The translations under genes and the position numbers were made by a program. 64,000 nt of DNA. Source: Candidatus Aminicenantales bacterium. GTDB lineage: Bacteria > Acidobacteriota > Aminicenantia > Aminicenantales > UBA4085. Under the pieces are notes generated by a model. The model saw only the letters and a list, made by a program, of their open reading frames with translations, was not told where the DNA came from and ran no database searches. The stretch is from positions 1 to 64,000 of the forward strand of contig JBEKTZ010000007.1 in NCBI GenBank assembly GCA_049515535.1, given 5' to 3'. Of this stretch, positions 1,732 through 62,598 are shown in pieces (the first letter of the stretch is position 1; each line of letters begins with the position of its first letter).

Positions 1732-3654
1732 TCAATTCTCTATGACGATCACCGAAAAGGCGCTCTTCTGTCCGTAGCTGAAGGTCGTTTTGACGGCATA
1801 GGCGTATTTTTGCGTTATCGGATCCGGCGGACTGATGATGTATTGATACGAAAACGTCGTCGTGTCCAAAGTCGCGAGCAGGGCGAACTGGTCGTTGCCG
1901 TCCTCGACCCTCTTTCGGTAGATCTCGTATCCGCTCACGTCGTTATCGACGTTCAAGGGGTTGTTGGTGAAGGTGATGGTATTGACCTTTTCCATCTTCT
2001 CGTAGAAAAGAAGCCGGAACCTGCGGGTGGAGGTCTGGAGCGCCGGATTTTGGGGCGGGAACTCGAACGTCTTGGTGCTGGTCACGTTGCCGCTCGGATC
2101 GCTCTCGTCGGCGTTCTGGGACACGGCCGTCAGCCGGTAGGAATAGTTCTTTTTGACGTCCAGTCCCGTGTCCTCGTACAGAAGCAGGGTCGGTGAAACC
2201 GAGGCGAGAAGCGCGAACGTGGCGTCCTCCGTGCCGGCGAGCTTCCTGTAAATCCTGTAGTTCTGGAGCGGGACGTTGGCGTTCTCGGGGTTCACCAGCC
2301 AGGTGATTTTATTGATCTTCTTGGCGCCCGTGCCGTCAAGCGTCGTCTCGATCGCCGGGCTCAGCGGGGCCTTGGGCTTGGGGATAAACCGCTGCTTGAA
2401 CGAGTACAGGATCTCATAGTTGCCCCCCACATTCTCGACCCAAAACAAGTGGAGATTGCCGTTCGATTCGCACACCAGCCATGGTTCTCCGTCAGCGCTG
2501 GAGGTGTTCGTGAAATTGACCGTATCCCCCCAGTTCAGCGTCGTCCCCGAAGGCGCGGCCGTCTTCAGGTAGATCTCCGTGTTCCCGTTCACATTTTCCA
2601 TCCAGGCGACATAGACTTCCTTGGTGGTGGGATTCACGGCGATCGTCGGACTATCGGAATCGCCGGTTGTCTGCGAAATGTTCACCGTGTCCTGCCACAC
2701 GCCGTTGATCGTCCGGCGGAAAAATATATCCGGGCCATTGCCCTGCATTGCCTGCCAGACGACATAAGCGTCGCCGGCGCCGTCCACGGCGATCCGGGGA
2801 TCGGTGTCGGTCAGGCCCGTGCCGCCCGAAAGATTCACCTCTGTCGTCCAGGATTGGAAATTTTTCGGCGTGGGGTTCTTGGAGTACCAGGCCTGCGTAT
2901 GATTGGTGAATACCAGGTGGGCGGTCCCCGTGGGATCGAAGGCGAAGATCTTGGTCAGGTACAAGTATTTCGAAAACCGGCCAAACGCGACGTTGATATA
3001 ATCGGACCCGACCACCGCTCCGGTGCCGCCGTCCCTGTATTTCATCGCGAAATCGAAGGGCCTGCCGTTATCGACCATGAAGATTCCGAAAATGGTGTTG
3101 TCGAGCGGTGAGACTCCGAGACAAGGGTATTCGCAAGGATTGGTGGGTACCTCCGAGAAGTTCAATGGGCCGGAGTTCCAAGTTCCATTGACACATTCCC
3201 GGAAAAAGACCTGCATGTATCCCACGGAGTAGTCGGCGTCGTGGTAGGCGATGACGACGTTCGACCCCGTGGACGTCACGGCAATGGTCGGGAATCCGGT
3301 ATCGTCGATGGCGTCATAGTACACGGGGTTGAGATTGGTCGCGGCCGGCCATTGGCCGGTCCTGTTGGTGTTGTACATGATGTATCTCGCCCCGCCGGCC
3401 CCGTAACTCCCCGGCCAGCCCACCCATGTCACATAGAGCTTCCCCTGGGCGTCGACGACGGCCACGGGGTTTCGATCCATGTACGTTGTATTGGAAATAT
3501 TGACGGGCACTGTCCAACCCGTGGGGGCATTGATCGTTTGGGAAACTTGGGGAGAGGCGGGCCCGAGCGGGGGTTTCGTTCCGCCGGCTGGCGTCAAGGC
3601 CGCGAGCGACGCGAATATAGCCAACGCGATAATCGCATTTTTCGTCTTTTTCAT
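1732..3654 (-). CDS. Secreted beta-propeller protein with two C-terminal FN3-like domains
   Basis: Signal peptide; about 7 repeats of W..PvNiS....P.iAVd..G..yVvW; two FN3-like modules (W..NP.N...YRIYRK...Y.Y); AAGGAG RBS. Confidence 0.8.
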   Translation of the reverse strand: MKKTKNAIIALAIFASLAALTPAGGTKPPLGPASPQVSQTINAPTGWTVPVNISNTTYMDRNPVAVVDAQGKLYVTWVGWPGSYGAGGARYIMYNTNRTGQWPAATNLNPVYYDAIDDTGFPTIAVTSTGSNVVIAYHDADYSVGYMQVFFRECVNGTWNSGPLNFSEVPTNPCEYPCLGVSPLDNTIFGIFMVDNGRPFDFAMKYRDGGTGAVVGSDYINVAFGRFSKYLYLTKIFAFDPTGTAHLVFTNHTQAWYSKNPTPKNFQSWTTEVNLSGGTGLTDTDPRIAVDGAGDAYVVWQAMQGNGPDIFFRRTINGVWQDTVNISQTTGDSDSPTIAVNPTTKEVYVAWMENVNGNTEIYLKTAAPSGTTLNWGDTVNFTNTSSADGEPWLVCESNGNLHLFWVENVGGNYEILYSFKQRFIPKPKAPLSPAIETTLDGTGAKKINKITWLVNPENANVPLQNYRIYRKLAGTEDATFALLASVSPTLLLYEDTGLDVKKNYSYRLTAVSQNADESDPSGNVTSTKTFEFPPQNPALQTSTRRFRLLFYEKMEKVNTITFTNNPLNVDNDVSGYEIYRKRVEDGNDQFALLATLDTTTFSYQYIISPPDPITQKYAYAVKTTFSYGQKSAFSVIVIEN

Positions 3655-3840
3655 AAAAAACTCCTTTTCATAGAGCCGCTATTTTATCCAATATGTCCTA
3701 TTGGGTCAAGGCCAATCAAAATGGGGTCGCGTCTACACTTTTCACTTTTCGATAAGAGTCGCCTTCGGCCGATTCTCCTACGTCGAGGAAAAGGAAAAAG
3801 GTGAAAAGTGTAGACGCGACCCCAACCATCCGGAAGCCCC

Positions 3841-4944: not shown

Positions 4945-4958
4945 GCTCCGGATTTTCC

Positions 4959-4987
4959 ATGCTATTTCCTGGAGATTGAAAAGTCAA
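4959..4987 (-). promoter_or_regulatory. Putative sigma70 promoter TTGACT-N17-TAGCAT
   Basis: Consensus-like hexamers with a 17-nt spacer upstream of the 4944 start. Confidence 0.5.
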
Positions 4988-4996
4988 GGAACCGGT

Positions 4997-6391: not shown

Positions 6392-6483
6392 CCATCCTCT
6401 TAATCACCCAGCAAATATAACGCCGGCCGCGCGGCGATGTCAAGAAACGCCGGCGGCTTCCCCGCTGCGCCTTTGCGGCGGAC

Positions 6484-7617: not shown

Positions 7618-7651
7618 GTCCGTTCTATTCTGGAAGTTCGGCGATGTCCTG

Positions 7652-8470: not shown

Positions 8471-8489
8471 TCGGCTCAAATTAGATTAT

Positions 8490-16013: not shown

Positions 16014-17067
16014 AACGGTCAGAAGAAGAGCACGCCTTTTTTGAAGAGATCGAAGGCGAAGCTCAAGCCCACCCCGTATTCGTTTCCGCCCAGGCCGATG
16101 TCGAATCCGTTGGCCGAGGCCGTCGCCTTGGTGAACTTGTAGTAGAGCTTGATCCGGAGCTGATCGAGCCAGGGGAAGACGATATAAGCGCCTGCTTGAA
16201 AATGATATCCGGAGGTCGAGCCCGTCGTGCTGTGGAGATCGCTCTTTTCATCGAAGCTGTACCAATCCGTGCCGAAGCCGATGAACGGGATGACGTATTC
16301 CGTCTGGTACAGCAGCCGGCCGGACAGCGAGATCGGCGTCATCGAAAAATCCGTCTTGATGTCCGTTTTCGCGCCGTCGAGCAGCGCAAAGCCGGACTTC
16401 GAATATTTCCGGGCTTCGAGGGAAACATCCAGTTGCAGGCCGTTGTAATAGACGAGCGTCCGGGTCAGGTTCAGCCCGAACTGCATGTCCGTGGTTTGGC
16501 CGTAGATGGCCCTGAAATCCTGGGACGGGCTCTGGTAGGTGCCGAGCATGATCCCGATGGATGTGTTATAGAAGCCCGGATATTCCTTCGCTTCGTTTTC
16601 GATCACTTCCGTCTTGGCTTCTTCCTTGGCCTCTTTCACGACCGGAACGGGCCTGGTTACGACCGGAGGCGCGACGGGCTTTCCCTCCTTCTTCTCTTCC
16701 AGGCTGAACTTGACGGTGAAGCCGGTCTCGGTCTTTTGGATCTCATAGGCCGGAATCGGGCCGGAAAAATCGAAGATCACCCGCGCGATCGAGGGCATAA
16801 ACTGGCCCGTGCGGATGCTCGTCAGGCCGGAAACGTTAACCTCGTAGAATGGCTGGGCCTCTATCTTCTGGGCGGGGGCGATATCGACGACCAGGCGATT
16901 CGGGCCGCTCAGGACCATGGCCTGGCTCACGAATTCGCCGTCGACCCGGACGGTGACGTTCAGGCCTTTATCGACCTTCAGATAACCGATGCTCTTGACG
17001 GTTGTCGGACTCTGGCCGGGCTTCCCTTCGGCTCCCCAAGAGCTTATCGCGAAAGCGGCGAGAACCA
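16014..17067 (-). repeat. About 1.05-kb inverted repeat, copy 1 (partner 27869..28910)
   Basis: Near-identical by direct comparison, with scattered substitutions and one 12-nt indel (KEGK). Confidence 0.95.
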
Positions 17068-17104
17068 AAAAAGCCGCGCCGATGGATACGGTGTTTTTTC
17101 TCAT
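16019..17104 (-). CDS. AMIN-domain + outer-membrane beta-barrel protein (copy 1)
   Basis: Signal peptide; AMIN motifs LSGPNRLVVDI and IRTGQF...ARVIFDF; Pro/Lys/Glu linker; amphipathic beta-strands with an aromatic C-terminus. GGAG RBS before ATG 17104. Confidence 0.8.
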   Translation of the reverse strand: MRKNTVSIGAAFLVLAAFAISSWGAEGKPGQSPTTVKSIGYLKVDKGLNVTVRVDGEFVSQAMVLSGPNRLVVDIAPAQKIEAQPFYEVNVSGLTSIRTGQFMPSIARVIFDFSGPIPAYEIQKTETGFTVKFSLEEKKEGKPVAPPVVTRPVPVVKEAKEEAKTEVIENEAKEYPGFYNTSIGIMLGTYQSPSQDFRAIYGQTTDMQFGLNLTRTLVYYNGLQLDVSLEARKYSKSGFALLDGAKTDIKTDFSMTPISLSGRLLYQTEYVIPFIGFGTDWYSFDEKSDLHSTTGSTSGYHFQAGAYIVFPWLDQLRIKLYYKFTKATASANGFDIGLGGNEYGVGLSFAFDLFKKGVLFF

Positions 17105-17117
17105 TCGTGAACTCTCC

Positions 17118-19169
17118 TTAAAATATCTCCCACGCCGTTCCACAAACAGGGCCTTCGACGCCGTCCTTGCGAATCGTGGAGAGGATATAAGCATATCTCT
17201 TTGAAGGCGAGATGTTAGCATCAAAATATTTATTGGTCAAGGGAATTTCCAGAAACGGGGATTCCGCCACGAGTTGGAAAGAGGCATCGCCCGCATCCCG
17301 CTCTTTGCGGTAGATCCTGAAGGCGATGATCTGGTCGGCCGCGTTTTTCGGGTTGTTTCGCCAACGGATCAGAACGCCCGGCCGGCTGTAGAAAAGGATT
17401 CTCTGACTGGAGCGCGACAATTGAACGTCCACGGGCGGAAAAGGCAATATTTGAATGCCGCCGAACCAGGTTTCGGCCATGAACTGGAATCCCTTTGGGT
17501 TCGGATGGACGCCGTCGGACAGCAAAAGGGATGTCCATCCCCCATCGATCGCGGGATAGTTTATAAAAGCTTCGTATTGATCGACCATGGGAATTTTCAG
17601 CGTTCCCGCGAACTGGCGGATCTTGCCGTTGAGATCGACGATCCGGCTTTGGTAGGGCGCGACGGACCAGCGCCAATCGTCGCGGGGGATGATCGTCGCG
17701 ATCAGGGGCAACAGCCCGGCCCTTAGACATTTTTTAGCCATTTCCTGGAGGTCGAAGGACGCCGTATCCATCGAGATATCGAGGAAAATGACGTCGTTGG
17801 TCCCTTCCATGAGCAGAAGGTAGCGGGACTGATGGGCTGCGATAGCCGCATCGATCCGGACGAGGCCGTCGAGCGTCGTTTCTCCGCCTTCCCCCTCATT
17901 CCAGATCTTTCCGGCGCCGTATTTCTGGATCAGCATAGGCTCGAGCCTCGGGAGATAGCCCTGGTTCTCGGCATAGGTGATGCTGTCGCCGAATCCCGTG
18001 TATTGGTTCTCGTCCAGTGAAGGATTGATGAGCGGAGGGGAATCCTGCGGCCGGGTGGGCGAAGGGAGAGTGCGGCCGAGTGCGGAAAAGGAGCCGAGTG
18101 CGGAAAAGGACAGGACCAGCGACCCGATTTGTCCGCCCGATTCCCAGGCCAACCCGATCCTATCGCCCTCGGCGGCTATTCTGGGTGTCCGGATCGGCTC
18201 CGCCTGGTCGGAGATGACGGCGATTTCGGGGCTCCAGACGGGTCCTTGTTTATATGATGCGCAGAGCCTGCTCGTCCGGCCCGAGGTCCGGCTCCAGATT
18301 ACCAAGGGAACCGTTTCTGAGACAAAGGCGATAGCTGGAGATGTGTTGGACGCCTCGTTATCCGTGATTTTTTCCTCGGCCGTCCAGCCTTCGCCGTTCC
18401 AGTTCGAGACGCAGATATTGTAGCTCCGGCCGTCGTAGGCGGACCAGGCGACCCAGGGATTTTGGTTTCCGTCAAGGCCGGCCGCCGGGCTCGTATGCGG
18501 ATACCTGTCGTCTTTGTTCAGCCGGAAGGGGCTTTCCCATGCGGATCCTCTGAAGACCGAGCCGAAGATCTCGTCGCGCCCGCGATCTCTTCCCGTCCAG
18601 AAGACCCAGGTCCCGCGGCTTCCGCCCGCCAGGACCTTGGGCGTCAGAGCGGAGGCGCAGAACGGCTCGTTGACGGTCCAGGTTTTGGCTCGGCCGAGGC
18701 TCGCGACCCGGACGCAATATTTCGGGCCGGCGCATTCGACCCAGGTGATCCAAGGATTGGATTCCTGATCGAAATCGAGATCGGGAGAAATGAGCGGCGA
18801 TTCCGAGCGGGCTATGGGACGAGCCGACCGTATACGGCCGTCTTGGAAGAAGCCGAAATAGATTTCGTTTTTCCCCGGGCTTGCCTGAACCCAGACGATT
18901 CCGATCTCGCCGGCTTTGTTCTTCCTGACGGCCGGCTCGAAAGCTCCGGAGGCCGGCTCGATTTCCTCGATGCTATTTTTCCCCCCGGGCGTCGCGAGGC
19001 TGAGGCCGTTCGCGGAATTCTGATAGACCAAAACAAAATTTCCCGCGCGATCAAAGAGGGGGTGAGGAGAGCGGCCGTCCGGATAAGGCCGAACATCCTG
19101 GGCCGCCAAGGAGCCGAGCGCCAGTCCCAGCCCCAGGAGAGCTCCGATCGCCGCGCGTTTCGTGATCAT
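17118..19169 (-). CDS. Secreted beta-propeller + SGNH hydrolase + C-terminal FN3-like domain protein
   Basis: Signal peptide; propeller repeats; GFGDSITY, MEGTND and DGVHPN; terminal W.NNP.N...FRIYRK domain. Confidence 0.85.
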   Translation of the reverse strand: MITKRAAIGALLGLGLALGSLAAQDVRPYPDGRSPHPLFDRAGNFVLVYQNSANGLSLATPGGKNSIEEIEPASGAFEPAVRKNKAGEIGIVWVQASPGKNEIYFGFFQDGRIRSARPIARSESPLISPDLDFDQESNPWITWVECAGPKYCVRVASLGRAKTWTVNEPFCASALTPKVLAGGSRGTWVFWTGRDRGRDEIFGSVFRGSAWESPFRLNKDDRYPHTSPAAGLDGNQNPWVAWSAYDGRSYNICVSNWNGEGWTAEEKITDNEASNTSPAIAFVSETVPLVIWSRTSGRTSRLCASYKQGPVWSPEIAVISDQAEPIRTPRIAAEGDRIGLAWESGGQIGSLVLSFSALGSFSALGRTLPSPTRPQDSPPLINPSLDENQYTGFGDSITYAENQGYLPRLEPMLIQKYGAGKIWNEGEGGETTLDGLVRIDAAIAAHQSRYLLLMEGTNDVIFLDISMDTASFDLQEMAKKCLRAGLLPLIATIIPRDDWRWSVAPYQSRIVDLNGKIRQFAGTLKIPMVDQYEAFINYPAIDGGWTSLLLSDGVHPNPKGFQFMAETWFGGIQILPFPPVDVQLSRSSQRILFYSRPGVLIRWRNNPKNAADQIIAFRIYRKERDAGDASFQLVAESPFLEIPLTNKYFDANISPSKRYAYILSTIRKDGVEGPVCGTAWEIF

Positions 19170-23377: not shown

Positions 23378-24961
23378 TCAGGAAAGGCGCTTTTTTTTGA
23401 GGCCAAGCCGTCGGTAAATCTGAATCTCGGGATTGACGGCGTCCATGTTTGTCCCAATGTTGGAGTACTTGATCACAAGCCAGGGCAGCTCGGTTTTATA
23501 CCGGATCACCAATTCATATTTTTCGCCGGCCGTGGAAAATCTAGAAAAAAACAGATTCTCCGGGGAGTTTTTCGCAAAGGACTGGCCATAGGCCGTGGGG
23601 AAAATCACGAAATCGGGCCTCTGAGCTTTTTGAAAAGCTTCCAGCGAAAGCGGAAGATACGACCGAGGGAAATCATTCAGGCGGGGGTTATATTCGACCG
23701 GGCCCGCGATTCCAATCGCGGCTTCCGGGGAAATGTTCTTATTCATCCAGCGTTCGATGGAATATCGTGAATCCGCGATCATGAGGATATCCACGGATAA
23801 TGAATAAAAAAAGCTATAACAGAAAATGATCGTTACGATAGCGCATGTGGCTTTGAAGAACTTTGGGCCGGGCTTTAATCGGCTGGAGATCATCTGCCCG
23901 CCAAAGAAAGACAAAACGATGCAGATCGGCATATTGTAACGGTCGCAATTAAAAAGAATCATCCCGATGTAAAACGCATAATAGGACACGGCAAAGAGGG
24001 GAAGAGTCAGGAGGAGAGCGTTCTTTTTTTTCTGAAACAGCGAGAGAACCAGTCCCGCCCCGCAGACGAGAAAGAGCGGCCAGCCCAGCGATCCCTGGAT
24101 TTGGCGGATGGTCAGTCCGAGCAGCTGGATCTCGCCCGAGAACGTGCGGGGAAAGATCCTGAAACTCTCGCTCGCGCTCCCCGTGATTAGGGCTAAATGG
24201 CGAAGGAAGCCCTGAAGATTGAACGCCAAGTTATGGACGATCGCGAAGAGACCCGTCGCCGCGAGCAGAAAATAGAGATATTTTTTATCGAAGAGGGAAC
24301 GGATCAGCGATAAGTCCGGGTTCGACTGCTTCTCATGTTTCCAATGAAAGAGGATCAAAGGGATCGGGGTCAGGACATAAAGCCCGAAGGCCTGGTCCTT
24401 TGTGCAGACGGCGATGACGGCCGTCGCGGCGAAGAGCAGATAATATTTCAAGCGCTGGGTTTTCAAGATCCGGATAAAAAAATAGATCGACCAGACAAAC
24501 CAGAAAATATAAGGAACATCCAGATTGACCATTTTGGAATAATATTCGAACGGAACGATCAGCGCGGTGATCAAGGCCGCGCAAACGGAAGCGCGCCGAT
24601 CGAAAATCTCAAGCCCGCATTTGTAAACCAGATAGACGACGGCCGTTCCCATGACGACGCTGAGGAATCGCCCGAGATAGAAGAGGATCATGTAAGAAGA
24701 CAGCTGGCGAAGATCGAGAATATGGAGCTTATGGAGGAGCAAAAAGGGGGCATAGACCAAGCTTAGCAAATAGAAATGGAACGGCGGGTATCGTTCATGC
24801 CAGCCGTTCGAAAAGAATTGGCGCAACCCGTCCACGACGCGCGCCGGAACGATTTCGTCAGGAGCCCAGCCTCGGTAATCCGGAAGCCCCCACCAGATGC
24901 CGACGGCGAAAAGGACGAAGCTCAACGCCAGAAGGAGATGAAGCGCGGATATCTTTTTCAC
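23378..24961 (-). CDS. GT-C (ArnT/GT39-like) membrane glycosyltransferase
   Basis: WGLP...WAPDE, YPP, GRFLSVVMG, NLDVP, CTKDQ; many TM segments; GTG start. Confidence 0.85.
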   Translation of the reverse strand: MKKISALHLLLALSFVLFAVGIWWGLPDYRGWAPDEIVPARVVDGLRQFFSNGWHERYPPFHFYLLSLVYAPFLLLHKLHILDLRQLSSYMILFYLGRFLSVVMGTAVVYLVYKCGLEIFDRRASVCAALITALIVPFEYYSKMVNLDVPYIFWFVWSIYFFIRILKTQRLKYYLLFAATAVIAVCTKDQAFGLYVLTPIPLILFHWKHEKQSNPDLSLIRSLFDKKYLYFLLAATGLFAIVHNLAFNLQGFLRHLALITGSASESFRIFPRTFSGEIQLLGLTIRQIQGSLGWPLFLVCGAGLVLSLFQKKKNALLLTLPLFAVSYYAFYIGMILFNCDRYNMPICIVLSFFGGQMISSRLKPGPKFFKATCAIVTIIFCYSFFYSLSVDILMIADSRYSIERWMNKNISPEAAIGIAGPVEYNPRLNDFPRSYLPLSLEAFQKAQRPDFVIFPTAYGQSFAKNSPENLFFSRFSTAGEKYELVIRYKTELPWLVIKYSNIGTNMDAVNPEIQIYRRLGLKKKRLS

Positions 24962-27828: not shown

Positions 27829-28905
27829 ATGCTGAAAAGAACGATCGTATCGATGGGCGTAGTTATTCTGGTTCTCGCCGCTTTCGCGATAAGCTCTTGG
27901 GGAGCCGAAGGGAAGCCTGGCCAGAGTCCGACAACCGTCAAGAGCATCGGTTATCTGAAGGTCGATAAAGGCCTGAACGTCACCGTCCGGGTCGACGGCG
28001 AATTCGTGAGCCAGGCCATGGTTTTGAGCGGCCCGAATCGCCTGGTCATCGATATCGCCCCCGCCCAGAAGATCGAGGCCCAGCCGTACTACGAGGTCAA
28101 CGTTTCCGGCCTGGCGAGCATCCGCACGGGCCAGTTCCAGCCCTCGATTGCGCGCGTGATCTTCGATTTTTCCGGCCCGATTCCGGCCTATGAGATCCAA
28201 AAGACCGAGACCGGCTTCACCGTCAAGTTCAGCCTAGAGGAAAAGCCCGTCGCGCCTCCGGTCGTAACCAGGCTCGTTCCGGTCGTGAAAGAGGCCAAGG
28301 AAGAAGCCAAGACGGAAGTGATCGAAAACGAAGCGAAGGAATATCCGGGCTTCTATAACACATCCATCGGGATCATGCTCGGCACCTACCAGAGCCCGTC
28401 CCAGGATTTCAGGGCCATCTACGGCCAAACCACGGACATGCAGTTCGGGCTGAACCTGACCCGGACGCTCGTCTATTACAACGGCCTGCAACTGGATGTT
28501 TCCCTCGAAGCCCGGAAATATTCGAAGTCCGGCTTTGCCCTGCTCGACGGCGCGAAAACGGACATCAAGACGGATTTTTCGATGACGCCGATCTCGCTGT
28601 CCGGCCGGCTGCTGTACCAGACGGAATACGTCATCCCGTTCATCGGCTTCGGGACGGATTGGTACAGCTTCGATGAAAAGAGCGACCTCCACAGCACGAC
28701 GGGCTCGACCTCCGGATATCATTTTCAAGCGGGCGCTTATATCGTCTTCCCCTGGCTCGATCAGCTCCGGATCAAGCTCTACTACAAGTTCACCAAGGCG
28801 ACGGCCTCGGCCAACGGATTCGACATCGGCCTGGGCGGAAACGAATACGGGGTGGGCTTGAGCTTCGCCTTCGATCTCTTCAAAAAAGGCGTGCTCTTCT
28901 TCTGA
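27829..28905 (+). CDS. AMIN-domain + outer-membrane beta-barrel protein (copy 2)
   Basis: Mature sequence differs from copy 1 by 5 substitutions and a 4-aa deletion; barrel identical; signal-peptide N-region differs. Confidence 0.8.
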   Translation: MLKRTIVSMGVVILVLAAFAISSWGAEGKPGQSPTTVKSIGYLKVDKGLNVTVRVDGEFVSQAMVLSGPNRLVIDIAPAQKIEAQPYYEVNVSGLASIRTGQFQPSIARVIFDFSGPIPAYEIQKTETGFTVKFSLEEKPVAPPVVTRLVPVVKEAKEEAKTEVIENEAKEYPGFYNTSIGIMLGTYQSPSQDFRAIYGQTTDMQFGLNLTRTLVYYNGLQLDVSLEARKYSKSGFALLDGAKTDIKTDFSMTPISLSGRLLYQTEYVIPFIGFGTDWYSFDEKSDLHSTTGSTSGYHFQAGAYIVFPWLDQLRIKLYYKFTKATASANGFDIGLGGNEYGVGLSFAFDLFKKGVLFF

Positions 28906-28910
28906 CCGTT
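27869..28910 (+). repeat. About 1.04-kb inverted repeat, copy 2
   Basis: Reverse complement of 16014..17067. Confidence 0.95.
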
Positions 28911-29054: not shown

Positions 29055-30974
29055 ATGAAAAAAAGGGCGATCGTAATATTCTTGGCGGTATCGGTGGCTT
29101 TTCTCGTCTTAGCCGGGGCCACGATGGCCTTGGGACCGCAGGCTAAGAAATCATTGGCGCAAACCACCGTCATCCTCCACCCACCTGACGGCTGGACGAC
29201 GCCCGTCAACGTCTCCCATTTGGCGGGCGAAAGCGACATGCCGATGCTCGCTGTCGATGACAACGGAAAGGCCTATGTCTGCTGGCAAGAATGGTACGGC
29301 AACCTCGGAGATCCCCGATCGAATGCATTCAACACCAATGTTACGGGCCAATGGGGGACCACCATTGAAAATTTCCTCGATTATGTCGCGATTGATGATG
29401 TCGGCTTCCCAGTTGTCACCTGCGACCCGTCGAACGGGACCGGCTACATGGCCTACCATGACGGCGACTTGGTCAATCAAGACATGGAAGTCAAGTGCGT
29501 GGAATTCACACAGGGGGTCCAGACGTCGAAAAAATGGATTTCCTTAACACCCAACGCCTCAGACTACGCGACGCTGGCCGTCAATCCCGTGGACAAAACC
29601 GTCTATTGCATGTGGTTTGACGACCTCACCGATACTGTCTTATATCAGCTCGTCTATCGCTGGCGGGATCCAGCGACAAAACAATGGAGCAGCACCTTGG
29701 CCCAGGTTCCCGTGTTCCCTGGCCGTTCGAAATACTGGCGGGACATGGTGATCGACAATACCGGGACGGCCCATCTCGTGTTCATTGTCCGGTCTCCGGC
29801 GGAGCTTTTTTATACGAAGAACCCCACGCCCCAGAATCAAAACACGTGGACGACGCCCATTTCCCTATCGGGGGATACGGGCCGCGATTGGATGATGCCG
29901 CGGATTGCGGCCGACAAGGACGGGGACGTCTACATCGTCTGGTACGCCAACACCGGGGGGTATGAGACCCAGACCGAGGAGGTTTGGTTCAATAAGACCG
30001 TGAACGGCGTCTGGCAGACCAAGGAGAATCTCTCGAATTCGCCGGGAAGGTCGGAGGGGTGTTGCGTCGCCGTCGACCCCGTGAACAAGGATGTCTATGT
30101 CGCCTATCACGAACTCCTGGGCACGACGAACTGGGAGGTCTATCTGAGAATCTATGCATCCCAGACAACGGGAGCAGCGAAATCCTGGTCGGATATCTAC
30201 AATATGACGAATGATTCCACCCACTCGGCCGAGCCGATCATCAGGATCGACGCCAAGCGGGGGCTTCACCTCGTTTATCACGATTACGTCGGCGAAAACC
30301 GCGAGGTCATGTACATGTATAAGCAAGGCGTCCCGGAGATCATGGCCCAGCCGCCGCTGAGTCCGGCCGTCGTCTCCGCCCTGAACGCCGCCGAAGCCGT
30401 CAGGACCAATACGCTCTCGTGGGCGGCGAATCCGGCCAACGCCGGCGTCACGATCGCGAACTACAAAATCTACCGGAAAATCGCCTCCGCCGCGGACAGC
30501 ACGTTCGCCTCGATCGGTCAGGCCGGCGCGTCCGCGTTGCAATACGTGGATACCGGGCTCGCGAGCTCGACGCGATACGCCTACCGCCTGACGACGGTTT
30601 TGAGCTCGGGGGAGGAGAGTGTCCCGTCCGACTCCGTCACCGATGGGACCCTCGTCTTCGCGCCGGTCAACGTCGCGATCACGACGGCCGTCACCCGGAT
30701 CGTGTTCTACCAAACGAAGGACAACACGATCACGTGGTCGACCAGCCCGAACAACGCGAGCAGCGACGTCGCCGGCTATGATATCTACCGCAAGAACGCG
30801 GGCGAGGACGATACAGCGTTCACGAAACTCAATACGAGCAGTCTGTCCGCCTCGACGTTCAGCTACACAGAGGCGAAACTCGTGGGTTCCCAGAAATACA
30901 CTTACGCGCTGAAAACGAAATTCAAAGACGGCCGCGAAAGTACGTATTCCGCCGCCGTCTCGCAACAAAAGTGA
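29055..30974 (+). CDS. Secreted 7-blade beta-propeller protein with two FN3-like domains
   Basis: Signal peptide and seven countable repeats. Closest to 1732..3654 (shared Y.AIDD.GFP and KNPTP.N..WT). Confidence 0.8.
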   Translation: MKKRAIVIFLAVSVAFLVLAGATMALGPQAKKSLAQTTVILHPPDGWTTPVNVSHLAGESDMPMLAVDDNGKAYVCWQEWYGNLGDPRSNAFNTNVTGQWGTTIENFLDYVAIDDVGFPVVTCDPSNGTGYMAYHDGDLVNQDMEVKCVEFTQGVQTSKKWISLTPNASDYATLAVNPVDKTVYCMWFDDLTDTVLYQLVYRWRDPATKQWSSTLAQVPVFPGRSKYWRDMVIDNTGTAHLVFIVRSPAELFYTKNPTPQNQNTWTTPISLSGDTGRDWMMPRIAADKDGDVYIVWYANTGGYETQTEEVWFNKTVNGVWQTKENLSNSPGRSEGCCVAVDPVNKDVYVAYHELLGTTNWEVYLRIYASQTTGAAKSWSDIYNMTNDSTHSAEPIIRIDAKRGLHLVYHDYVGENREVMYMYKQGVPEIMAQPPLSPAVVSALNAAEAVRTNTLSWAANPANAGVTIANYKIYRKIASAADSTFASIGQAGASALQYVDTGLASSTRYAYRLTTVLSSGEESVPSDSVTDGTLVFAPVNVAITTAVTRIVFYQTKDNTITWSTSPNNASSDVAGYDIYRKNAGEDDTAFTKLNTSSLSASTFSYTEAKLVGSQKYTYALKTKFKDGRESTYSAAVSQQK

Positions 30975-33338: not shown

Positions 33339-35177
33339 ATGAAAAGAACGACGCTGGGCGGGGTCCTTCTCCTCGTTTCGATCTCGCTTCTTTCCGTGTT
33401 CGCCTTCGTGAAGCCGGAGGCCGGCCGGCGGGAGCGGGCCGCGCCGTCCCTGAGTTGGACGGCCCCCGTCAATATATCCAATTCCTCGTCCGACTCCGAT
33501 TTCCCGTTGGTGGGTGTGAATAGCAGCGGATCGGCTTACGCCGTCTGGATCGAGCACCAGAGCAGGAGAAATTTTAATTTTTCGACGAACAAAAGCGGAT
33601 CCTGGCCGAGCCCTCAATACGCCGGGCAAATCTTTTCCGACGCGGAGGTGACGGGCTATCCGGCCTTCGCCGTCTCGCCGGCCGGGACCTGTCATCTGAC
33701 GTTTCAGGACGTCCGGGTCGCTTCCTATGACGTTTTTCATCTCTTTTACGACAATTCCTGGGGCCCGGCCACCAACCTGTCGGATAACTCCGGGGGGTCC
33801 GGCTATTCCTCCTGCGCCGTCAATTCCGTCGATAATTATCTTTATGTGGTCTGGACGGACGGCACCGTCAGCGAGTGGGAGATTTATCTGCGATTCCGGA
33901 GCGCCGCGGGGATCTGGAGCGACACGCAGACCCTTCAGGTCGGTCCGGGATATATGCCGAGCATCGCCTTGGACGCGAGCGGCCGGGCCTGTCTCGCCTG
34001 GACCATCCGGGGCGGAGGGACCTCGGCGGTGTGGTTTTCCAGGAACGATACTCCCCAGAACCCCGGAACATGGTCTTCGCCGGTTTTGATCAAGGGCGAT
34101 ACGGGCGAGAATTTTTGCAATCCGAGAATCGACTGCGACAACGCGGGGAACGCGTACATCATTTGGCTGGATAATACCAGGGGAAACGATGAAATTTTCC
34201 TGAGGAAGGTCGACCGCGGCGGCGCTCTGGGAGATGAAGTCAACGTCTCCCAGACTTCCGGATCGTCTCAGGAAGGCGCGCTGGCCGTCAACCGCCAGAA
34301 CGGCCATATCTACGTCTCCTGGGCGGAAAGCGGGGACATCTATCTCAACACGTTCGGGGACAGTTGGAGCGGAGGCGTGAATCTGACGAACGATGCCGCG
34401 GCCTCCGGAATGCCAAGCTTGGCCGTGGATTCGTCCGGCAACATCCACGTCGTTTACGCCGAAGAAATGGCGGGCGGGAATCGGGATATTTTCTATTTGA
34501 CGGCTCAGGTATTGACGACCACCTCGACCATTACGACCACGTCCATTCCTGCGCGCCTCTCGTCCCCGCTGGACTTGGCCTTGGAGACGCGGTCGAGCGA
34601 CGACCAGACCGCCAAGATCGACGTTCTCACCTGGCATCGAAACCCCGAGAATCGTAGTTTCGTTTTGAGAGAGTATCGGATATTCCGGAAAAGAGCCGGT
34701 TATCCTGACGGCGATTTCACTTTCCTCGGAGCGGTTTCACCCGACACGTATCGCTACGAGGACGCCGGGCTTCCCCTGACCCAAAGATTCACATACCGGA
34801 TGACGACGGCGGCCCAGAATGGAGACGAGAGCGATCCCTCAGCGTCAGCGGATGAAGACGGCGTTTTCCCTCCCCTGAACGTGACCTGCCGGACGATGAC
34901 GAACAGCTCGCTGTTCCGGCACGAAAAGATTAATATCCTTGACTGGCAAAGGAACATCCTGAACGAGGACGTGCCCGTCGTTCAATATAATGTTTACCGC
35001 AAACGGTCCGACCAGGAAGATACCCAATATGATCTGATCGGCTCCGTCGCCGGCGGCCTATTCGAATATCAGGACCGGAAAGTGCCGCTCGGAGGGAAAT
35101 ATTATTACGTGATTACGGCCATCGTCGCGGCCGGAGACGAAAGCCGGAGATCCAACACGGCCAGGGAAGGCTCCTGA
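33339..35177 (+). CDS. Secreted beta-propeller protein with Thr-rich linker and two FN3-like domains
   Basis: Signal peptide MKRTTL...SVFA; propeller repeats; TTTSTITTTSIP linker. Confidence 0.8.
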   Translation: MKRTTLGGVLLLVSISLLSVFAFVKPEAGRRERAAPSLSWTAPVNISNSSSDSDFPLVGVNSSGSAYAVWIEHQSRRNFNFSTNKSGSWPSPQYAGQIFSDAEVTGYPAFAVSPAGTCHLTFQDVRVASYDVFHLFYDNSWGPATNLSDNSGGSGYSSCAVNSVDNYLYVVWTDGTVSEWEIYLRFRSAAGIWSDTQTLQVGPGYMPSIALDASGRACLAWTIRGGGTSAVWFSRNDTPQNPGTWSSPVLIKGDTGENFCNPRIDCDNAGNAYIIWLDNTRGNDEIFLRKVDRGGALGDEVNVSQTSGSSQEGALAVNRQNGHIYVSWAESGDIYLNTFGDSWSGGVNLTNDAAASGMPSLAVDSSGNIHVVYAEEMAGGNRDIFYLTAQVLTTTSTITTTSIPARLSSPLDLALETRSSDDQTAKIDVLTWHRNPENRSFVLREYRIFRKRAGYPDGDFTFLGAVSPDTYRYEDAGLPLTQRFTYRMTTAAQNGDESDPSASADEDGVFPPLNVTCRTMTNSSLFRHEKINILDWQRNILNEDVPVVQYNVYRKRSDQEDTQYDLIGSVAGGLFEYQDRKVPLGGKYYYVITAIVAAGDESRRSNTAREGS

Positions 35178-35213
35178 CCCCCGGCCATGAAAGCGAGAAT
35201 GAGAAAACGCCCG

Positions 35214-37109
35214 ATGAGACGAACAACGATCTCCTTGGCCATGCTTGTCGGCGCCGTGCTGCTCATTTCGGTTTTCGCCCTGGTGAACCCCAGGACGGGC
35301 AAGCCGGGACAGGAGATCCCGCTTTTGTCCCCCTCCACTCCCATTAATATTTCTCATTCCGGCGCCAATTGCGATTATCCGCTTGTCGGGGTCGACGCCA
35401 ACGGGGCCGCCTATGTCATCTGGATTGAATCCTTCAGCCAAATCAAGTTCACCACGAACAAGACCGGCAGCTGGTCCACTCCCCAAACGATCGCGGTTAT
35501 CAGGTATTTCGGGGTTGATCCGGAGGGGCACAAGGATTTCTCGGTGGGCGCCTCCGGCGTCTGTCATATGGTGATCCGGGACCCCGATCCCGGCTTTACG
35601 CATTTCACGATTTATCATTCCATCTACGAAAACAACACCTGGTCGACTCCCGTGAACATAACGGATCAACCGGGAACGGCGACCTATATCGCCGGCGCTC
35701 TCAACCCGGCCGATTATTACTACTATGCTCTTTGGCAGGACGATTCAGTCCATATGTGGGATTTCTGGATGCGTTACCGGACGGCGGGCGGCAGTTGGGG
35801 ACAGATCGGACAGGTGCTCAGCAATACGGGCTATCACCCCAACCTCGTCATCGGCGGCAACGGCAGAGCCCATCTTGTCTGGTCAAGGAATCCATCGGGA
35901 TCGGCGAAGTATTCGAGAAACGACGACCCCCGCAACCCCAGCGGATGGACATCGCCGATCACGATCGTCGATAATTCGGGCATCGAGTGGAACAATGCCC
36001 GGCTCGATTGCGACAATGCCGGCAACGCCTATATCATCTGGAATGGAAATCTTTCGGGAAACGGCGAGATCTATTTCCGGAAAGTCGCGAGCAACGGAAC
36101 GCTGGGCAGCGTGGTGAATGTTTCCCAGACCCCGGGAAATTTTCAGGAAACTGAAGTGGCCGATATCGCCGTCGACCGCCGGAACGGCGATATCTTCATC
36201 GCCTGGACGGAAAACGGGGATGTCTATTGGAATACCTGCCAGCAAGGAAACTGGGCCGGATCGCAGAAAATACCGAGCACCGGCGCGGCCTCGGGTCCGC
36301 CGGGGACAGCGGTGGATTCCGGCGGGAACGTCCATCTCACTTATGCGGCGGTCTCCGGCGGAGTCCGGCAGATCTTCTACACGACGACGTCCCAGGGACC
36401 GAACACCTCGACCACGACGAGCACCGGCTCCTCGAGCACAACATCCACGACGACGTCCACGACGACGTCCATCCCGGTCAAGCCCTATCCTCCGTTGAAT
36501 CCCGCGCTGAGCACCCAGCTCGACGCGTCTCAAACCCAAAAGGTCAATACGCTGACCTGGCAGAGCAATCCCGCCAACGCCAACCTCGCCCTGAAGGAAT
36601 ATTGGATCTACCGCAAAAGGGCCAACATGTCGGACAGCGATTTCAGCCGTATCGCCTTAGTTCCGACGGGAACCTTTCAATACGTGGATCCGGGATTGCC
36701 GCTCACCCAGAGGTACACCTACGGCCTGACGACGCTTCCCACGGATCCCTACGGACTGGAGAGCAACGGCTCGGATTTCGTGACCGAGCTTGGCGCCTTT
36801 CAGCCCCTGGGCGTCGCCTGCAAGACTGTCGTCAACAATTCCCTGTTCCGGAGCGAGAAGATCAACGTGATCTCTTGGATAAGGAATCCGCTCAACGACG
36901 CGGTCACCATCGCCCAGTATAATATTTTTCGGAAAAAAACGAGTGAAGCTGACTCCGCGTATAAACTGATCAAATCCTCCGGGGCCGGCATCTTTGAATA
37001 TCAGGACCGGAAACTGTCGTTCAGCGATCAATATCAATACGTCGTCACGGCCGTGGAAACAGGGGGATTCGAGAGCGCGAGATCTACTCCGGCCAGAGAA
37101 GGGACCTGA
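35214..37109 (+). CDS. Secreted beta-propeller protein with long Ser/Thr linker and two FN3-like domains (tandem paralog)
   Basis: MRRTTI start chosen by alignment with the upstream paralog; shared R.DCDNAGNAYIIW and NSSLFR/NNSLFR.EKIN. Confidence 0.8.
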   Translation: MRRTTISLAMLVGAVLLISVFALVNPRTGKPGQEIPLLSPSTPINISHSGANCDYPLVGVDANGAAYVIWIESFSQIKFTTNKTGSWSTPQTIAVIRYFGVDPEGHKDFSVGASGVCHMVIRDPDPGFTHFTIYHSIYENNTWSTPVNITDQPGTATYIAGALNPADYYYYALWQDDSVHMWDFWMRYRTAGGSWGQIGQVLSNTGYHPNLVIGGNGRAHLVWSRNPSGSAKYSRNDDPRNPSGWTSPITIVDNSGIEWNNARLDCDNAGNAYIIWNGNLSGNGEIYFRKVASNGTLGSVVNVSQTPGNFQETEVADIAVDRRNGDIFIAWTENGDVYWNTCQQGNWAGSQKIPSTGAASGPPGTAVDSGGNVHLTYAAVSGGVRQIFYTTTSQGPNTSTTTSTGSSSTTSTTTSTTTSIPVKPYPPLNPALSTQLDASQTQKVNTLTWQSNPANANLALKEYWIYRKRANMSDSDFSRIALVPTGTFQYVDPGLPLTQRYTYGLTTLPTDPYGLESNGSDFVTELGAFQPLGVACKTVVNNSLFRSEKINVISWIRNPLNDAVTIAQYNIFRKKTSEADSAYKLIKSSGAGIFEYQDRKLSFSDQYQYVVTAVETGGFESARSTPAREGT

Positions 37110-37267
37110 CGGGCACTCTTGGAGGAAAACCCTTTTTGGGGTTTCCCTCCAACGGGAGCTTCGCTCCCTGCCACCCTTCCTTGGAGCATCGCGTGAACGC
37201 ATTTTTACGGATAGGCCCTATTTATTAAATGGGGCGCCCCGGTCGGCGTCACCCGTTCTCCCCTCGC
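37104..37267 (+). repeat. About 160-bp structured dispersed repeat, copy 1 (copy 2 at 59804..59966)
   Basis: High identity between copies; hairpins TTGGAGG...CCTCCAA and GGGAGC-TTC-GCTCCC. Confidence 0.9.
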
Positions 37268-56167: not shown

Positions 56168-56196
56168 TTGAAATGAGGGCCGGCCTCGCCTATAAT
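56168..56196 (+). promoter_or_regulatory. Sigma70 promoter TTGAAA-N17-TATAAT
   Basis: Near-consensus hexamers ending 11 nt before ATG 56208. Confidence 0.65.
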
Positions 56197-56207
56197 TTGG
56201 GAGTTTC

Positions 56208-58922: not shown

Positions 58923-58927
58923 AGCCC

Positions 58928-59809
58928 ATGCCTCCAGAGTTCTCCTGCACACTATGCGGCGGCCGGTTCCGGCGGGCACTATTTTCAGTTAGAGGGTTTA
59001 GTTTTCTACGGTGTCGGGATTGCGGCTTGATCCAGATGGATCCTTTCCCCGAAGATCGGGAGGCCGGCGAAGATTACGCCGGCTTCGACTTGAATACCTA
59101 TCGAAAGTTCATGGTCGCTTTCCGCATACCGCAGTATGAACGCGACATCTCTTTCCTCCGGGAATACGCACCCGGAGGCCGTCTTCTCGACGTCGGCTGC
59201 GGGACGGGCGAATTTTTGGATGTCGCCGGGCGAAACGGGTTTCAACCCTACGGCCTCGAGCCTTCGCGGAAAGCCTATGACATCGCCCGAAAGGGCCGCA
59301 AGGTCGTCCGGGGAGAATTGCGGAACGTGGAATTCAAGGAGGAATTCTTCGACGCGGTCACCCTCTGGTCGGTATTGGAACACATCCCGGCGCCGTCGCC
59401 TTTTCTCGGGCGGATCCGCACGATCCTGAAAAGGGGGGGGATCCTAGCCCTCCGGCTTCCGGACGCGAAGGGGCTTCTTACCTCGCTCGCGTTGTGCCTT
59501 TATAAGATTTCCCTGGGGCGCATCGCTTCGCCGCTGAGCGTCCTTTATCAGCTCGATTGGCACTACAAACACTTTTACGGATATGACCGGCGGACGGCGG
59601 GCCGCTTGCTGGACGCGAACGGCTTCGAGGTCATCGGCCTCCGTTCGGAGATCGGTTTCGATTATCGCAGCCTCGACCTCAGGCTGGATTACATCTCCGG
59701 CAACCGCTTCGCCCGGAAGGCCGTCCGGGGCGCGCTGGGGGCGGTCTCGATCCTGGCCAAGCTCCTGAGGAAAGAGGACGAGTTGGTCCTGATCGCCCGG
59801 AAAACCTGA
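58928..59809 (+). CDS. Class I SAM methyltransferase with N-terminal Cys4 motif
   Basis: CTLC...CRDC, LLDVGCGTG, VLEH. Confidence 0.9.
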   Translation: MPPEFSCTLCGGRFRRALFSVRGFSFLRCRDCGLIQMDPFPEDREAGEDYAGFDLNTYRKFMVAFRIPQYERDISFLREYAPGGRLLDVGCGTGEFLDVAGRNGFQPYGLEPSRKAYDIARKGRKVVRGELRNVEFKEEFFDAVTLWSVLEHIPAPSPFLGRIRTILKRGGILALRLPDAKGLLTSLALCLYKISLGRIASPLSVLYQLDWHYKHFYGYDRRTAGRLLDANGFEVIGLRSEIGFDYRSLDLRLDYISGNRFARKAVRGALGAVSILAKLLRKEDELVLIARKT

Positions 59810-59966
59810 CCGGACATTCTTGGAGGAAAACCCTTTTCGGGGTTTCCCTCCAACGGGAGCTTCGCTCCCTGCCACCCTTCCTTGGAGCATCTCGTGAACG
59901 CATTTTTGTGGTCAGGCCCTGTTTATAATATGGGGCGCCCCGGTCGGCGTCACCCGTTCTCCTCGC
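59804..59966 (+). repeat. About 160-bp structured dispersed repeat, copy 2
   Basis: Direct repeat of 37104..37267. Confidence 0.9.
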
Positions 59967-59988
59967 TTTATTTTTTTATTTCACAGAA

Positions 59989-60136
59989 GCACAGGATATG
60001 CTGCTCGGAACCCGTCCGAGCGCGAGAGCGGGCATGGTTCGGAAAAACGCAGTTTTTCCGAGAGCTCGAGAGCGAGGCCGAGCGGATTTTCCGCGCTGGG
60101 GAAAATCCGCGTGGTGACGAGCAGCGTATCCTGTGC
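59989..60136. other. 148-bp element with 19-bp terminal inverted repeats and internal hairpins (MITE-like or structured RNA)
   Basis: GCACAGGATATGCTGCTCG pairs with CGAGCAGCGTATCCTGTGC; internal 10-bp and 11-bp perfect stems. Confidence 0.7.
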
Positions 60137-60264
60137 GCTCCCCGACTGGTATATTAAAAATGTTCGACGGTCAATTCTGCCCTCTATCCCGCGCACATAT
60201 CCTAATCTCGGCCGATCTCGCCTTGACAGGCTTGATTTTAAATGGTAAAAAGGGTCAACTGCGG

Positions 60265-62598
60265 ATGAGATTGAAGAGAAGGGATTTTATCCGGATCGGC
60301 GGTGCCGGTCTGTTTCTCGCGGGCCTGGACCCGCTCAATATTCTCGCGGCCTCCCCGCCGCCGTTGAACCCGGCCTCCCCTTTTTACGAGCAGCTGGCCA
60401 GCGAAGAATTTCCCTTCCCCTACGACGATGCGGTTTTCGACGCCGCCGAGCGGATAGCGAATGTCCGGAGAAACCCGAGCGATACCAAAACCTGGCTGAC
60501 GGATCTGAACTTGCTCGTGAAAAGCGGGAAGCGGCTGGATATCAAGGTTTATGTCGCAGACCGTCGCGAAAACCTGGCTAATCCCATGGATCTTCAATCA
60601 TTTACCGGCGTCCAGGGCTCTTTGGACACGCAGCTCCGCGGGTACGACAGCGCCCGGCTGTATTATCAGGTCCAGTATCGGGAAGGACAAGGGGCCTGGA
60701 AGTCCCTTTCCCCCCGGAGTTTCAAGCTTCCCAACACCAGTTTGCAGGACGGGGGACAGTTCCAGGCCATTTTTTTGGGAGATGATCATAGTTTCGACGA
60801 TGCCGATTTTGTCGTCTCCCCCGCAGACATACAGTCCAAGATCACGGGCGATTTTTTTTATCAATTTCATCAGGAATTGAAGGCCAATCCCTCCTGGGAA
60901 CCGTCTGACCCCTGGAATCAATTCGTGTTCTCTTTCGCGTTGGCCAAGGCTCAACGCCACATCCTCTCTTCGGAAGACCCGGACTTTTTCGTCAACCTGG
61001 GTGATTCGAACGGCATTGGCGCCGGCTACAAATGGGAAAGCTGGGGCCTCCCTTACAAAAATCTCAGCGATCAAGATTACGAATATATCGCGAAAACCCT
61101 CTGGTACAGGTCGAGGAAGATATTTTCCGCCATCACGCCGAACATCCCGGTCTATTGGGCCCTCGGCAACCATGACGGCGACGAGAACTGGAATGCGGCC
61201 CGGTTTCGGTCGAAATACTGGCGGCAGAAAGTTTTTGCGCTGCCGGGCCAGACGACGTATTCCGAGGGCGGCCATCCCGACGGCAATTATTATGCGTTCT
61301 CCTGGGGCGCGGATAAAGACAATCGCGGCGGCGCCCAGTTCATCATCCTCGACGTCACGGGGTTTACGGGAAACGAACCGGTCAAAGCGCAGGATTGGAC
61401 GCTGGGCGCCGAACAACGCCAGTGGTTCGAGAACGTCCTGAGCAAAAACGATCATGATTGGAGCTTCGCCTGCTTTCACCACGCGCTCGGCGGCTGGCCC
61501 AAGGGTTCGAACGAGAACGATTCCAGCATTGCCTACGGACGGGGGCCTCTTTTCACCGAGCAGGATTATTCCAATATCGCCGATCCGGCTTTGGTCGAGC
61601 AGGTCGCCCTGACGAATCTCGGGAAACAATACGGCCTGCGCGGTTTTATTTACGGGCACGACCATATTTTCAAAGTCATGAGGATCGGCGAGAGCTCCAA
61701 CAAAAAAGACCTCCTCGGCGTCTGTGTCGGCTCGACCAAATCTATCGGAGAAGAGGAATGGTGGAAGGGAACTTACTGGAAGAGATTCTACGGGGACGGG
61801 TTTAAATCCAACCCCGATTTCTTCGGCCCTTCCGGTATTACTCGGATGACCATCAATAGCGACAAAGTGAAGATCGATTACATCTGCACCAGGCGCACGT
61901 CTCCCGCTTCCACTAATCTCCCCGGCGGAGGCAGCGAAAACACCATCTATGCCAGCGCCGTCACGGTCAATCCGCAGCCGTCCATCGATGTGGACAAAAC
62001 GTCTATCACTTTTGAAACGACGGAGAGGAGTTCGCTTCCTCCGCCCAATCAGATCCTCAAGGTCCGCAACGGCGGGGGACAGGTCCTGAGATATTCGGTC
62101 AACGCCTCTCAGGATTGGATCGCGGTCAACCCTAACGCCGGAAACTCGTGGGCTTCCTGGACGGACGTGACCGTCTCCATTACTGCCGGAAACTCGATTG
62201 CCGGGACCTATAATGGGACGATCAAAGTCGAATCCTCGACGGCTTCCAACGGTTCGATCCAGATTCCCGTCCAGTATCTGGTCAAAGAAGCCCCTCTCTA
62301 CATGCCTCTGAATTTCGCGGGGACGAGGATGGGGGGGGCCTACTCCACCTCGAGACAGGACGCCATCATCCTGACCTGGCAGGCCAATGGGCTCAACGCG
62401 AACGTGACGAAATACCGCCTTTATGTTTATAACAATCTCGGGGCCCGGACCAAGATCGGCGAGACGGCTCCTTCAACGCTCAGGTTCGAGTTCTACCCGG
62501 CCGACAAAAACAAGAGCTATAAGTTCGACGTCGCTGCCGTCAACGACCATGGCCGGGAGGGAGAATCGGCGGCGACGACCGTGGCCAAGAACTTCTAG
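60265..62598 (+). CDS. Tat-exported metallophosphoesterase with BACON/Ig-like and C-terminal FN3-like domains
   Basis: KRRDFI Tat motif; GDDH, LGD, GNHD, FHH, GHDH; W+.V.P..G BACON-like segment. TTGACA-N17-TAAAAA at 60223-60251. Confidence 0.85.
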   Translation: MRLKRRDFIRIGGAGLFLAGLDPLNILAASPPPLNPASPFYEQLASEEFPFPYDDAVFDAAERIANVRRNPSDTKTWLTDLNLLVKSGKRLDIKVYVADRRENLANPMDLQSFTGVQGSLDTQLRGYDSARLYYQVQYREGQGAWKSLSPRSFKLPNTSLQDGGQFQAIFLGDDHSFDDADFVVSPADIQSKITGDFFYQFHQELKANPSWEPSDPWNQFVFSFALAKAQRHILSSEDPDFFVNLGDSNGIGAGYKWESWGLPYKNLSDQDYEYIAKTLWYRSRKIFSAITPNIPVYWALGNHDGDENWNAARFRSKYWRQKVFALPGQTTYSEGGHPDGNYYAFSWGADKDNRGGAQFIILDVTGFTGNEPVKAQDWTLGAEQRQWFENVLSKNDHDWSFACFHHALGGWPKGSNENDSSIAYGRGPLFTEQDYSNIADPALVEQVALTNLGKQYGLRGFIYGHDHIFKVMRIGESSNKKDLLGVCVGSTKSIGEEEWWKGTYWKRFYGDGFKSNPDFFGPSGITRMTINSDKVKIDYICTRRTSPASTNLPGGGSENTIYASAVTVNPQPSIDVDKTSITFETTERSSLPPPNQILKVRNGGGQVLRYSVNASQDWIAVNPNAGNSWASWTDVTVSITAGNSIAGTYNGTIKVESSTASNGSIQIPVQYLVKEAPLYMPLNFAGTRMGGAYSTSRQDAIILTWQANGLNANVTKYRLYVYNNLGARTKIGETAPSTLRFEFYPADKNKSYKFDVAAVNDHGREGESAATTVAKNF

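Follow-up and report, generated by a model that had tools for sequence, protein, structure and literature searches.

The 64,000-nt window analyzed here (contig JBEKTZ010000007.1 of a Candidatus Aminicenantales genome, called G000 below, with its proteins given P numbers) encodes six exported proteins that end in the same module of about 100 residues, a fibronectin type III (FN3) domain with a lengthened hairpin, together with two copies of an eight-stranded outer-membrane barrel. We interpret module and barrel as the two parts of a surface-display system of the class Aminicenantia, for which we infer binding, location and export route. The association of tag and barrel is solid, and docking of the tagged cargo on the barrel at the cell surface is the most likely mechanism, to which we give a probability of about 0.6.

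All six proteins are open reading frames (ORFs) with signal-like N-termini and the module at their end (Table 1), as a first-pass annotation of the window had proposed. Its claim that their cargo differs is only modestly true within the window, where four of the six are related propellers matching NF053835 weakly and under its cut-off, and is borne out by the diversity of cargo across the rest of the genome and the class. When a profile built from the six terminal modules was iterated to convergence on the 15,638 six-frame ORFs of G000, it recovered 20 domains in 14 proteins, with the module 0–4 residues from the C-terminus in 13 of the 14. These 13 are signal-peptide proteins; the seven encoded outside the window have cargo including GH99, papain-like, nuclease, NHL, and GDSL domains, and five of the seven share a tighter motif, NRSLxQxEY. 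The 14th protein, P0014, a lipoprotein whose FN3 repeats are ordinary and lack the hairpin extension, was used as an internal control (L008:6487-7632; G000 C1:418483-419631). Proteins of similar size and with similar tails recur phylum-wide and are the source of many weak profile matches.

The body of the module is predicted to be an ordinary FN3 domain. The AlphaFold (AF2) model of the P0003 tandem, with a predicted local distance difference test score (pLDDT) of 91.6, consists of two FN3 domains having the seven-stranded sandwich, strand-B Trp, and strand-C/F Tyr of that fold, and its top Foldseek matches are FN3 tandems. Pfam fn3 matched weakly in 13 of 43 modules and in just two of the six window proteins. 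The A–B hairpin is lengthened by eight residues and carries hydrophobic tip motifs such as NRSLxQxEY, RILFY, and SSLFR; in the terminal domain of the P0003 model, strand A spans residues 107–118 (12 residues) and strand B residues 121–131 (11 residues), and FY occupies the turn. Matches to solved structures and to generic FN3 proteins mostly begin at about position 20 of the profile, and the distinctive part is therefore the first 20 residues: PDB matches cover only positions ~20–100, as do most of the 53,533 matches in a search of representative proteins, where multi-FN3 repeat proteins dominate and a full-length C-terminal match was found in only three of the best 150 listed.

The hairpin and its tip also distinguish terminal modules from other FN3 domains of the same proteins. 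Pro and Trp are spaced 24 apart in 89 of the 99 terminal modules, 22 apart in 11 of 13 internal ones and 16 apart in the FN3 domains of the control P0014, and a hydrophobic tip residue is present in 99/102 terminal versus 7/15 non-terminal modules, counts in which kin are not independent. The first-pass annotation had placed the insertion on the terminal domain alone; penultimate modules proved to be extended as well, with polar residues, while the last two residues of the extension and the hydrophobic tip are terminal-specific. The five tips it had listed are all present, and the sixth protein, P0006, has a long hairpin without one. In standard FN3 topology the A–B turn lies at the C-terminal pole, facing away from the cargo, so that a hydrophobic tip is exposed on the last domain only. 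Two loci of genome G036 (L165 and L173) are exceptions to the terminal rule, having a tipped module followed by one plain FN3 domain. An ordinary FN3 spacer expanded in one lineage, with the barrel linkage due to hitch-hiking, would account for the normal FN3 body, the Foldseek result, and the abundance of matches to the generic part of the profile, but would leave the terminal position, the fixed hairpin length, the terminal-only tip, and the roughly 70-fold adjacency enrichment described below without explanation; we consider it highly improbable.

The module occurs throughout the class Aminicenantia. Its profile matched 151 of 151 class genomes searched at E ≤ 0.001, generic FN3 domains being counted too, and all 29 class genomes in a phylum sample, with best E-values of 4.4e-14 or lower. 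Outside the class, 42 of 272 genomes in that sample matched at E ≤ 1e-8 (best 1.7e-14), mostly by the FN3 body alone. A tipped module was found there in two genomes of one family, one with a barrel gene directly after it: locus L224:3894-6174 encodes an M28-like peptidase with a tipped module and a barrel gene directly downstream, and L225, of the same family, also has a tipped module. Full-length matches outside the class in G316 and G356 were discounted, being ordinary FN3 domains with neither tip nor barrel. The module is thus almost confined to one class in the phylum sample, in line with the lineage restriction proposed initially. The proposal of a lineage-specific tag rather than a generic spacer is likewise supported, the matches being many, nearly always C-terminal, and borne by signal-peptide proteins with diverse cargo. 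ESM Atlas returned generic FN3 and outer-membrane protein clusters, with Aminicenantota clusters at rows 1 and 9 by structure.

Scans of a species collection and of metagenomes used a narrower alignment of the NRSL subtype, and therefore see that subtype alone; the broad alignment gave no usable pattern. In 29 of the 30 loci the best module match ended no more than 11 residues before the stop, and the module lay within 10 residues of the stop in 67 of 70 distinct metagenome modules. Signal-like N-termini were found in 61/67 module proteins versus 458/833 long ORFs under the same lax rule, most failures among the module proteins being short fragments. None of 67 module regions has a C-terminal membrane helix, the maximum 19-residue hydropathy being 1.47. 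Cargo of the 37 scanned among 50 full-length relatives included C1, C10, S8, M12, and M28 peptidases, GDSL, lactamase folds, transglutaminase-like domains, and propellers. The species collection yielded 23 loci, including 11 titled Aminicenantes or relatives, one Acidobacteriota, and ten Eubacteriales or Clostridia metagenome-assembled genomes (L040, L045, L048, L051-L056, and L061). In four of these ten, a gene for an outer-membrane barrel immediately follows the module gene, contrary to what such labels would suggest. The titles are probably wrong, judging by sequence, because Eubacteriales-titled L053 clusters with a class member in both the module and the barrel trees (100/99).

The partner barrel has an eight-stranded model (pLDDT 95.7) that is closest to NspA, OmpW, and OmpA, superposing on NspA with a Z-score of 19.5 and a root-mean-square deviation of 2.1 Å over 146 aligned residues. 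Loop 1 contains a conserved helix with an F..IYG motif, and the family-specific motifs sit in four long loops. The barrel profile matched 149 of 151 class genomes and, weakly, 37 of 272 genomes outside the class (best 2.6e-16). G000 has six barrels, five of which adjoin a module gene, two of those in the window. The N-terminal domain is AMIN in two of the six and, judging from sequence, an SH3-like repeat in a third, and the other three have no such domain, so that AMIN, present in only 2/6, was rejected as the defining feature of the partner. Family-wide, the N-terminal domain may be AMIN (by Pfam), SH3-like, PKD-like or adaptor-like (mostly read from sequence), or missing. The suggested co-occurrence of the module with an AMIN-barrel therefore stands as to the barrel, with the AMIN fusion being one form of an eight-stranded family. 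In the window, P0165 is probably co-transcribed with P0002 because its ATG lies 14 nt past the P0002 stop behind an AGGAG site. The genes of P0165 and P0166 are a 96% DNA-identical inverted duplication of the barrel gene only (16014-17099 and 27836-28910).

Adjacency was assessed in ten well-assembled genomes other than G000, one of which had given a row of the barrel profile, after merging two frameshift pieces. Of 48 barrels, 15 had a full-length module match no more than 1 kb away where 0.22 were expected, a roughly 70-fold enrichment, and 21 of 49 module matches had a barrel within 2.5 kb. In metagenomes a barrel followed 37 of the 66 modules with enough flanking sequence. Among 101 pairs the barrel gene was directly downstream on the same strand in 94 while cargo was swapped, the module keeping its barrel as its own cargo is exchanged.

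Module and barrel phylogenies are also congruent. For 43 pairs, an identical 24-row clade (99/96 and 99/99) and a matching five-row clade appear in the two trees, five pairs of one genome are split among clades identically in both trees, and module and barrel distances correlate at 0.61 versus a maximum of 0.32 in 5,000 permutations. Based on assignment through the nearest foreign pair, orphan tags could be allotted to barrels from the same genome: the AMIN-barrel subtype for P0001 and P0007, and an orphan barrel at C16:63664-64254 for P0004, P0005, and P0008. It is possible to imagine that the hairpin anchors itself in the outer leaflet or in a surface glycan layer and that the barrels are independent genes clustered in the same envelope islands. 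The glycosylation genes of the window and the more than half of module genes that have no adjacent barrel would suit such self-anchoring, but the constant downstream position of the barrel despite cargo swaps and the subtype concordance of tag and barrel make it improbable.

Covariation between the two proteins was calculated for 101 pairs (effective n 82) with a 10-class residue alphabet. The mean hairpin by outer-loop covariation, 0.153, was reached by 0/71 and 0/60 clade-restricted shuffles, and hairpin by periplasmic-turn covariation gave no signal over shuffles in these pairs. This maps the hairpin weakly to the outer loops. The periplasmic AMIN or SH3 domains of the barrels could instead indicate that the tag binds on the periplasmic side and keeps enzymes periplasmic, close to the cell wall, the more so as Sec-type signals by themselves lead only to the periplasm and onward export is our own proposal. 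The family-specific motifs in the four long loops, the covariation with loops and not with periplasmic turns, and cargo types that appear typical of extracellular polymer breakdown speak against periplasmic retention, which we rate about as improbable as self-anchoring.

For surface docking we propose the following sequence. Cargo exported by Sec or Tat would fold and cross the outer membrane, most likely by the secretin of a type II-like system; the hairpin, at the C-terminal pole away from the cargo, would then plug into the extracellular loops of the barrel and keep the cargo at the surface non-covalently. Barrels with N-terminal AMIN or SH3 domains would in addition be tied to the cell wall. 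Tag subtypes would pair with barrel subtypes, and orphan cargo would share a barrel encoded elsewhere. We put at slightly better than even odds the more general view of a modular non-covalent display system unrelated to type IX secretion, with an OmpA-fold socket, an FN3 hairpin plug, and several orthogonal subtypes per cell, that is class-wide and possibly present in other phyla, as hinted by the second Acidobacteriota lineage and, distantly, by Myxococcus.

Several observations weigh against surface docking on a dedicated barrel. In the ten genomes, no partner gene lies within 2.5 kb of 31 of the 48 barrels or of 28 of the 49 module matches, and 4/6 window proteins are orphans with no adjacent barrel; the subtype assignment of P0003 is ambiguous. 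P0006 and two more terminal modules have no hydrophobic tip, and four of the seven non-terminal tipped modules are of the tip type with 37–94 more residues after them. Congruent trees can result from joint inheritance of a linked cassette. The covariation is underpowered at its effective n, intra-protein pairs are noisy, the shuffles also break kinship, and the top-50 count, reached by 0/71 shuffles, was reached by 3/60 tighter ones. Among 40 loci, most of them picked because their barrel ORFs were long, none showed a tag–barrel fusion. Finally, near-full-length GspD was found in G000 alone, the other 60 genomes searched matching the secretin part only.

An eight-stranded barrel is not wide enough for folded domains to pass through, and for this reason a display or docking tag fits better than an export signal handled by the barrel; secretin translocation followed by barrel docking is the simplest model, and cargo probably passes the outer membrane through a secretin. 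G000 has three secretin loci: judging by gene order and pilin-like N-termini, C23:3237-13585 is a complete type II secretion system (T2SS)-like cluster, with C14:87281-94908 a second such cluster and C1:379878-384934 a type IV pilus cluster. The C23 secretin scores 349 bits versus a GspD cut-off of 351, and secretin matches occur in 61/61 class genomes, none above that cut-off. These machines, along with a weak match to an NCBIfam PelI model in 5/43 modules, would also suit a reading in which the hairpin is the export signal for a T2SS and the barrel a chaperone-like or merely co-regulated neighbor. Its precedent, in excerpts of PMC7949064, is loop 3 of the Fn3 domain of PelI/Pel3, a T2SS secretion determinant that shares with the Aminicenantia tag the use of an FN3 loop as trafficking signal by a diderm that has a T2SS. 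As described there, however, that signal belongs to a single enzyme family without partner barrel and is a flexible C–C′ loop rather than a fixed-length A–B hairpin. Moreover, a single machine would not need several tag subtypes tracking barrel subtypes, and we regard a T2SS signal as unlikely.

The first-pass annotation had compared the module with a type IX secretion system (T9SS) C-terminal domain (CTD), a likeness that survives as analogy only. Terminal beta-sandwich, signal peptide, and diverse cargo are common to both, but T9SS CTD profiles (Pfam and NCBIfam) matched 0/43 modules at E ≤ 0.05 and none of the six window proteins, and PorV (PF19572) was found in 0/61 class genomes (at least 90% complete, not closed) with a positive control in Bacteroides. 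Searches of G000 for SprA/Sov and the type A CTD gave no match, the control searches being silent too. On these sequence comparisons the module system is not a T9SS CTD. Excerpts of PMC12618676 describe type B CTDs of Flavobacterium johnsoniae that use cognate PorP/SprF-like shuttle barrels, a system with which ours shares signal peptides and a terminal domain on diverse cargo, gene linkage to cognate barrels, and orphan cargo sharing a barrel encoded elsewhere, whereas the Aminicenantia tag is an FN3 with a long A–B hairpin and the barrel an eight-stranded OmpA/OmpW fold. The type A CTD of RgpB, in the portion of PMC4804311 concerned, is likewise a terminal seven-stranded beta-sandwich, often after another Ig-like domain, but has its signal in the last 22 residues and is cleaved by PorU, while here it is the beginning of the domain, at its N-terminus, that is distinctive.

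The closest published genetic parallel appears to be Myxococcus xanthus SgmI (MXAN_2561), an FN3-containing surface protein co-transcribed with a downstream barrel, MXAN_2562 (bioRxiv 10.64898/2026.08.28.747804). The passage on SgmI states no binding to its barrel; the FN3 domains of SgmI are central and it has a C-terminal sorting tag of its own, whereas Aminicenantia cargo ends in FN3 with no membrane helix. NF040596 (MXAN_2562_fam) matched 10/20 Aminicenantia barrels weakly, with a best E of 4e-7, far under the 100-bit curated cut-off. With OmpA, OmpW, and NspA (Pfam PF13505) the barrel shares its fold and, by analogy with OmpA, periplasmic cell-wall-binding partner domains; it differs in its mostly weak Pfam matches, lineage-specific loop motifs, N-terminal wall-binding domains, and gene-paired tagged cargo. 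Tripartite sorting tags (PEP-CTERM, MYXO-CTERM, GlyGly-CTERM) were rejected given that there is no transmembrane helix and no CTERM-domain model among the NCBIfam matches. Type V secretion involves a passenger–barrel fusion or a 16-stranded POTRA barrel partner, and was rejected on account of the eight-stranded barrel and the 40 loci without module–barrel fusion; long barrel ORFs were similarly rejected as tag–barrel fusions, the module being absent from all that were checked. No description of the tag–barrel pair was found in the literature searched, mostly openly readable papers and bioRxiv main texts without supplements, and the main text of a study of C-terminal sorting signals (10.1101/2023.06.07.544157) contains neither Aminicenantes nor fibronectin.

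Surface retention of secreted hydrolases in diderms beyond Bacteroidota and Proteobacteria is largely unexplained. The module provides a scannable marker of likely surface enzymes in Aminicenantia and offers a concrete two-protein mechanism. If correct, protein docking would be a new job for the eight-stranded barrel fold, and orthogonal tag–barrel pairs of ~100 and ~160 residues could serve as display tools. The component folds are known and the logic resembles that of T9SS type B CTD–shuttle pairs; what is new is a non-homologous system.

Table 1. Module-bearing proteins and AMIN-barrels encoded in the window
Protein	Coordinates	Strand	Length (aa)	Architecture	Terminal module	Tip	Remarks
P0001	1732..3654	-	640	Signal peptide, propeller-like cargo, polar-hairpin FN3, terminal hairpin-FN3	~1735-2070	RLLFY	Barrel gene not adjacent
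P0165	16019..17101	-		AMIN and eight-stranded outer-membrane barrel			
P0002	17118..19169	-	683	Signal peptide, propeller-like region, GDSL/SGNH hydrolase, terminal hairpin-FN3	17121-17447	RILFY	
P0166	27829..28905	+		AMIN and barrel (second copy)			149 bp upstream of P0003
P0003	29055..30974	+	639	Signal peptide, propeller-like cargo, polar-hairpin FN3 (~30348-30650), terminal hairpin-FN3	30651-30971	RIVFY	
P0004	33339..35177	+	612	Signal peptide, propeller-like cargo, Thr/Ser linker, polar FN3, terminal hairpin-FN3	34860-35174	NSSLFR	
P0005	35214..37109	+		P0004 paralog with long Thr/Ser linker, terminal hairpin-FN3	36792-37106	NNSLFR	Other possible ATG at 35187
P0006	60265..62598	+		Tat-like signal (RRxF), metallophosphoesterase, BACON-like domain, terminal long-hairpin FN3	62293-62595		Divergent member

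Further barrel architectures were observed in family f8. In one, the barrel ends proteins of 690-1,030 residues whose N-terminal part, read from sequence, resembles one or two efflux periplasmic-adaptor repeats (L227:5778-8804, L228:5102-8188, L229, L230, L231, L232, and L234), three of them among tagged cargo genes. Most of L092-L106 encode a barrel fused C-terminally to an SH3-like domain plus two to three PKD-like repeats, and the fetched flanks of these loci contain no tagged gene. Three loci from other Acidobacteriota classes (L236, L237, and L238) encode a distant barrel whose loop-1 motif is similar, and no module gene was found within ~4 kb.

Positions 3841-59809 of the window form a surface-glycosylation island with four GT-C/PMT_2-like membrane proteins (at 23378, 25641, 31114, and 56208), GT1/2/9 transferases, B12 radical-SAM enzymes, epimerases, and one sulfatase. 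P0004, P0005, and P0008 have Thr/Ser-rich linkers directly before their FN3 tandem, which from their composition may be sites of O-glycosylation. Rfam gave no match in the window. A 159-bp intergenic repeat, 92% identical between its copies, occurs at 37104-37261, after P0005, and at 59804-59962, upstream of P0006.

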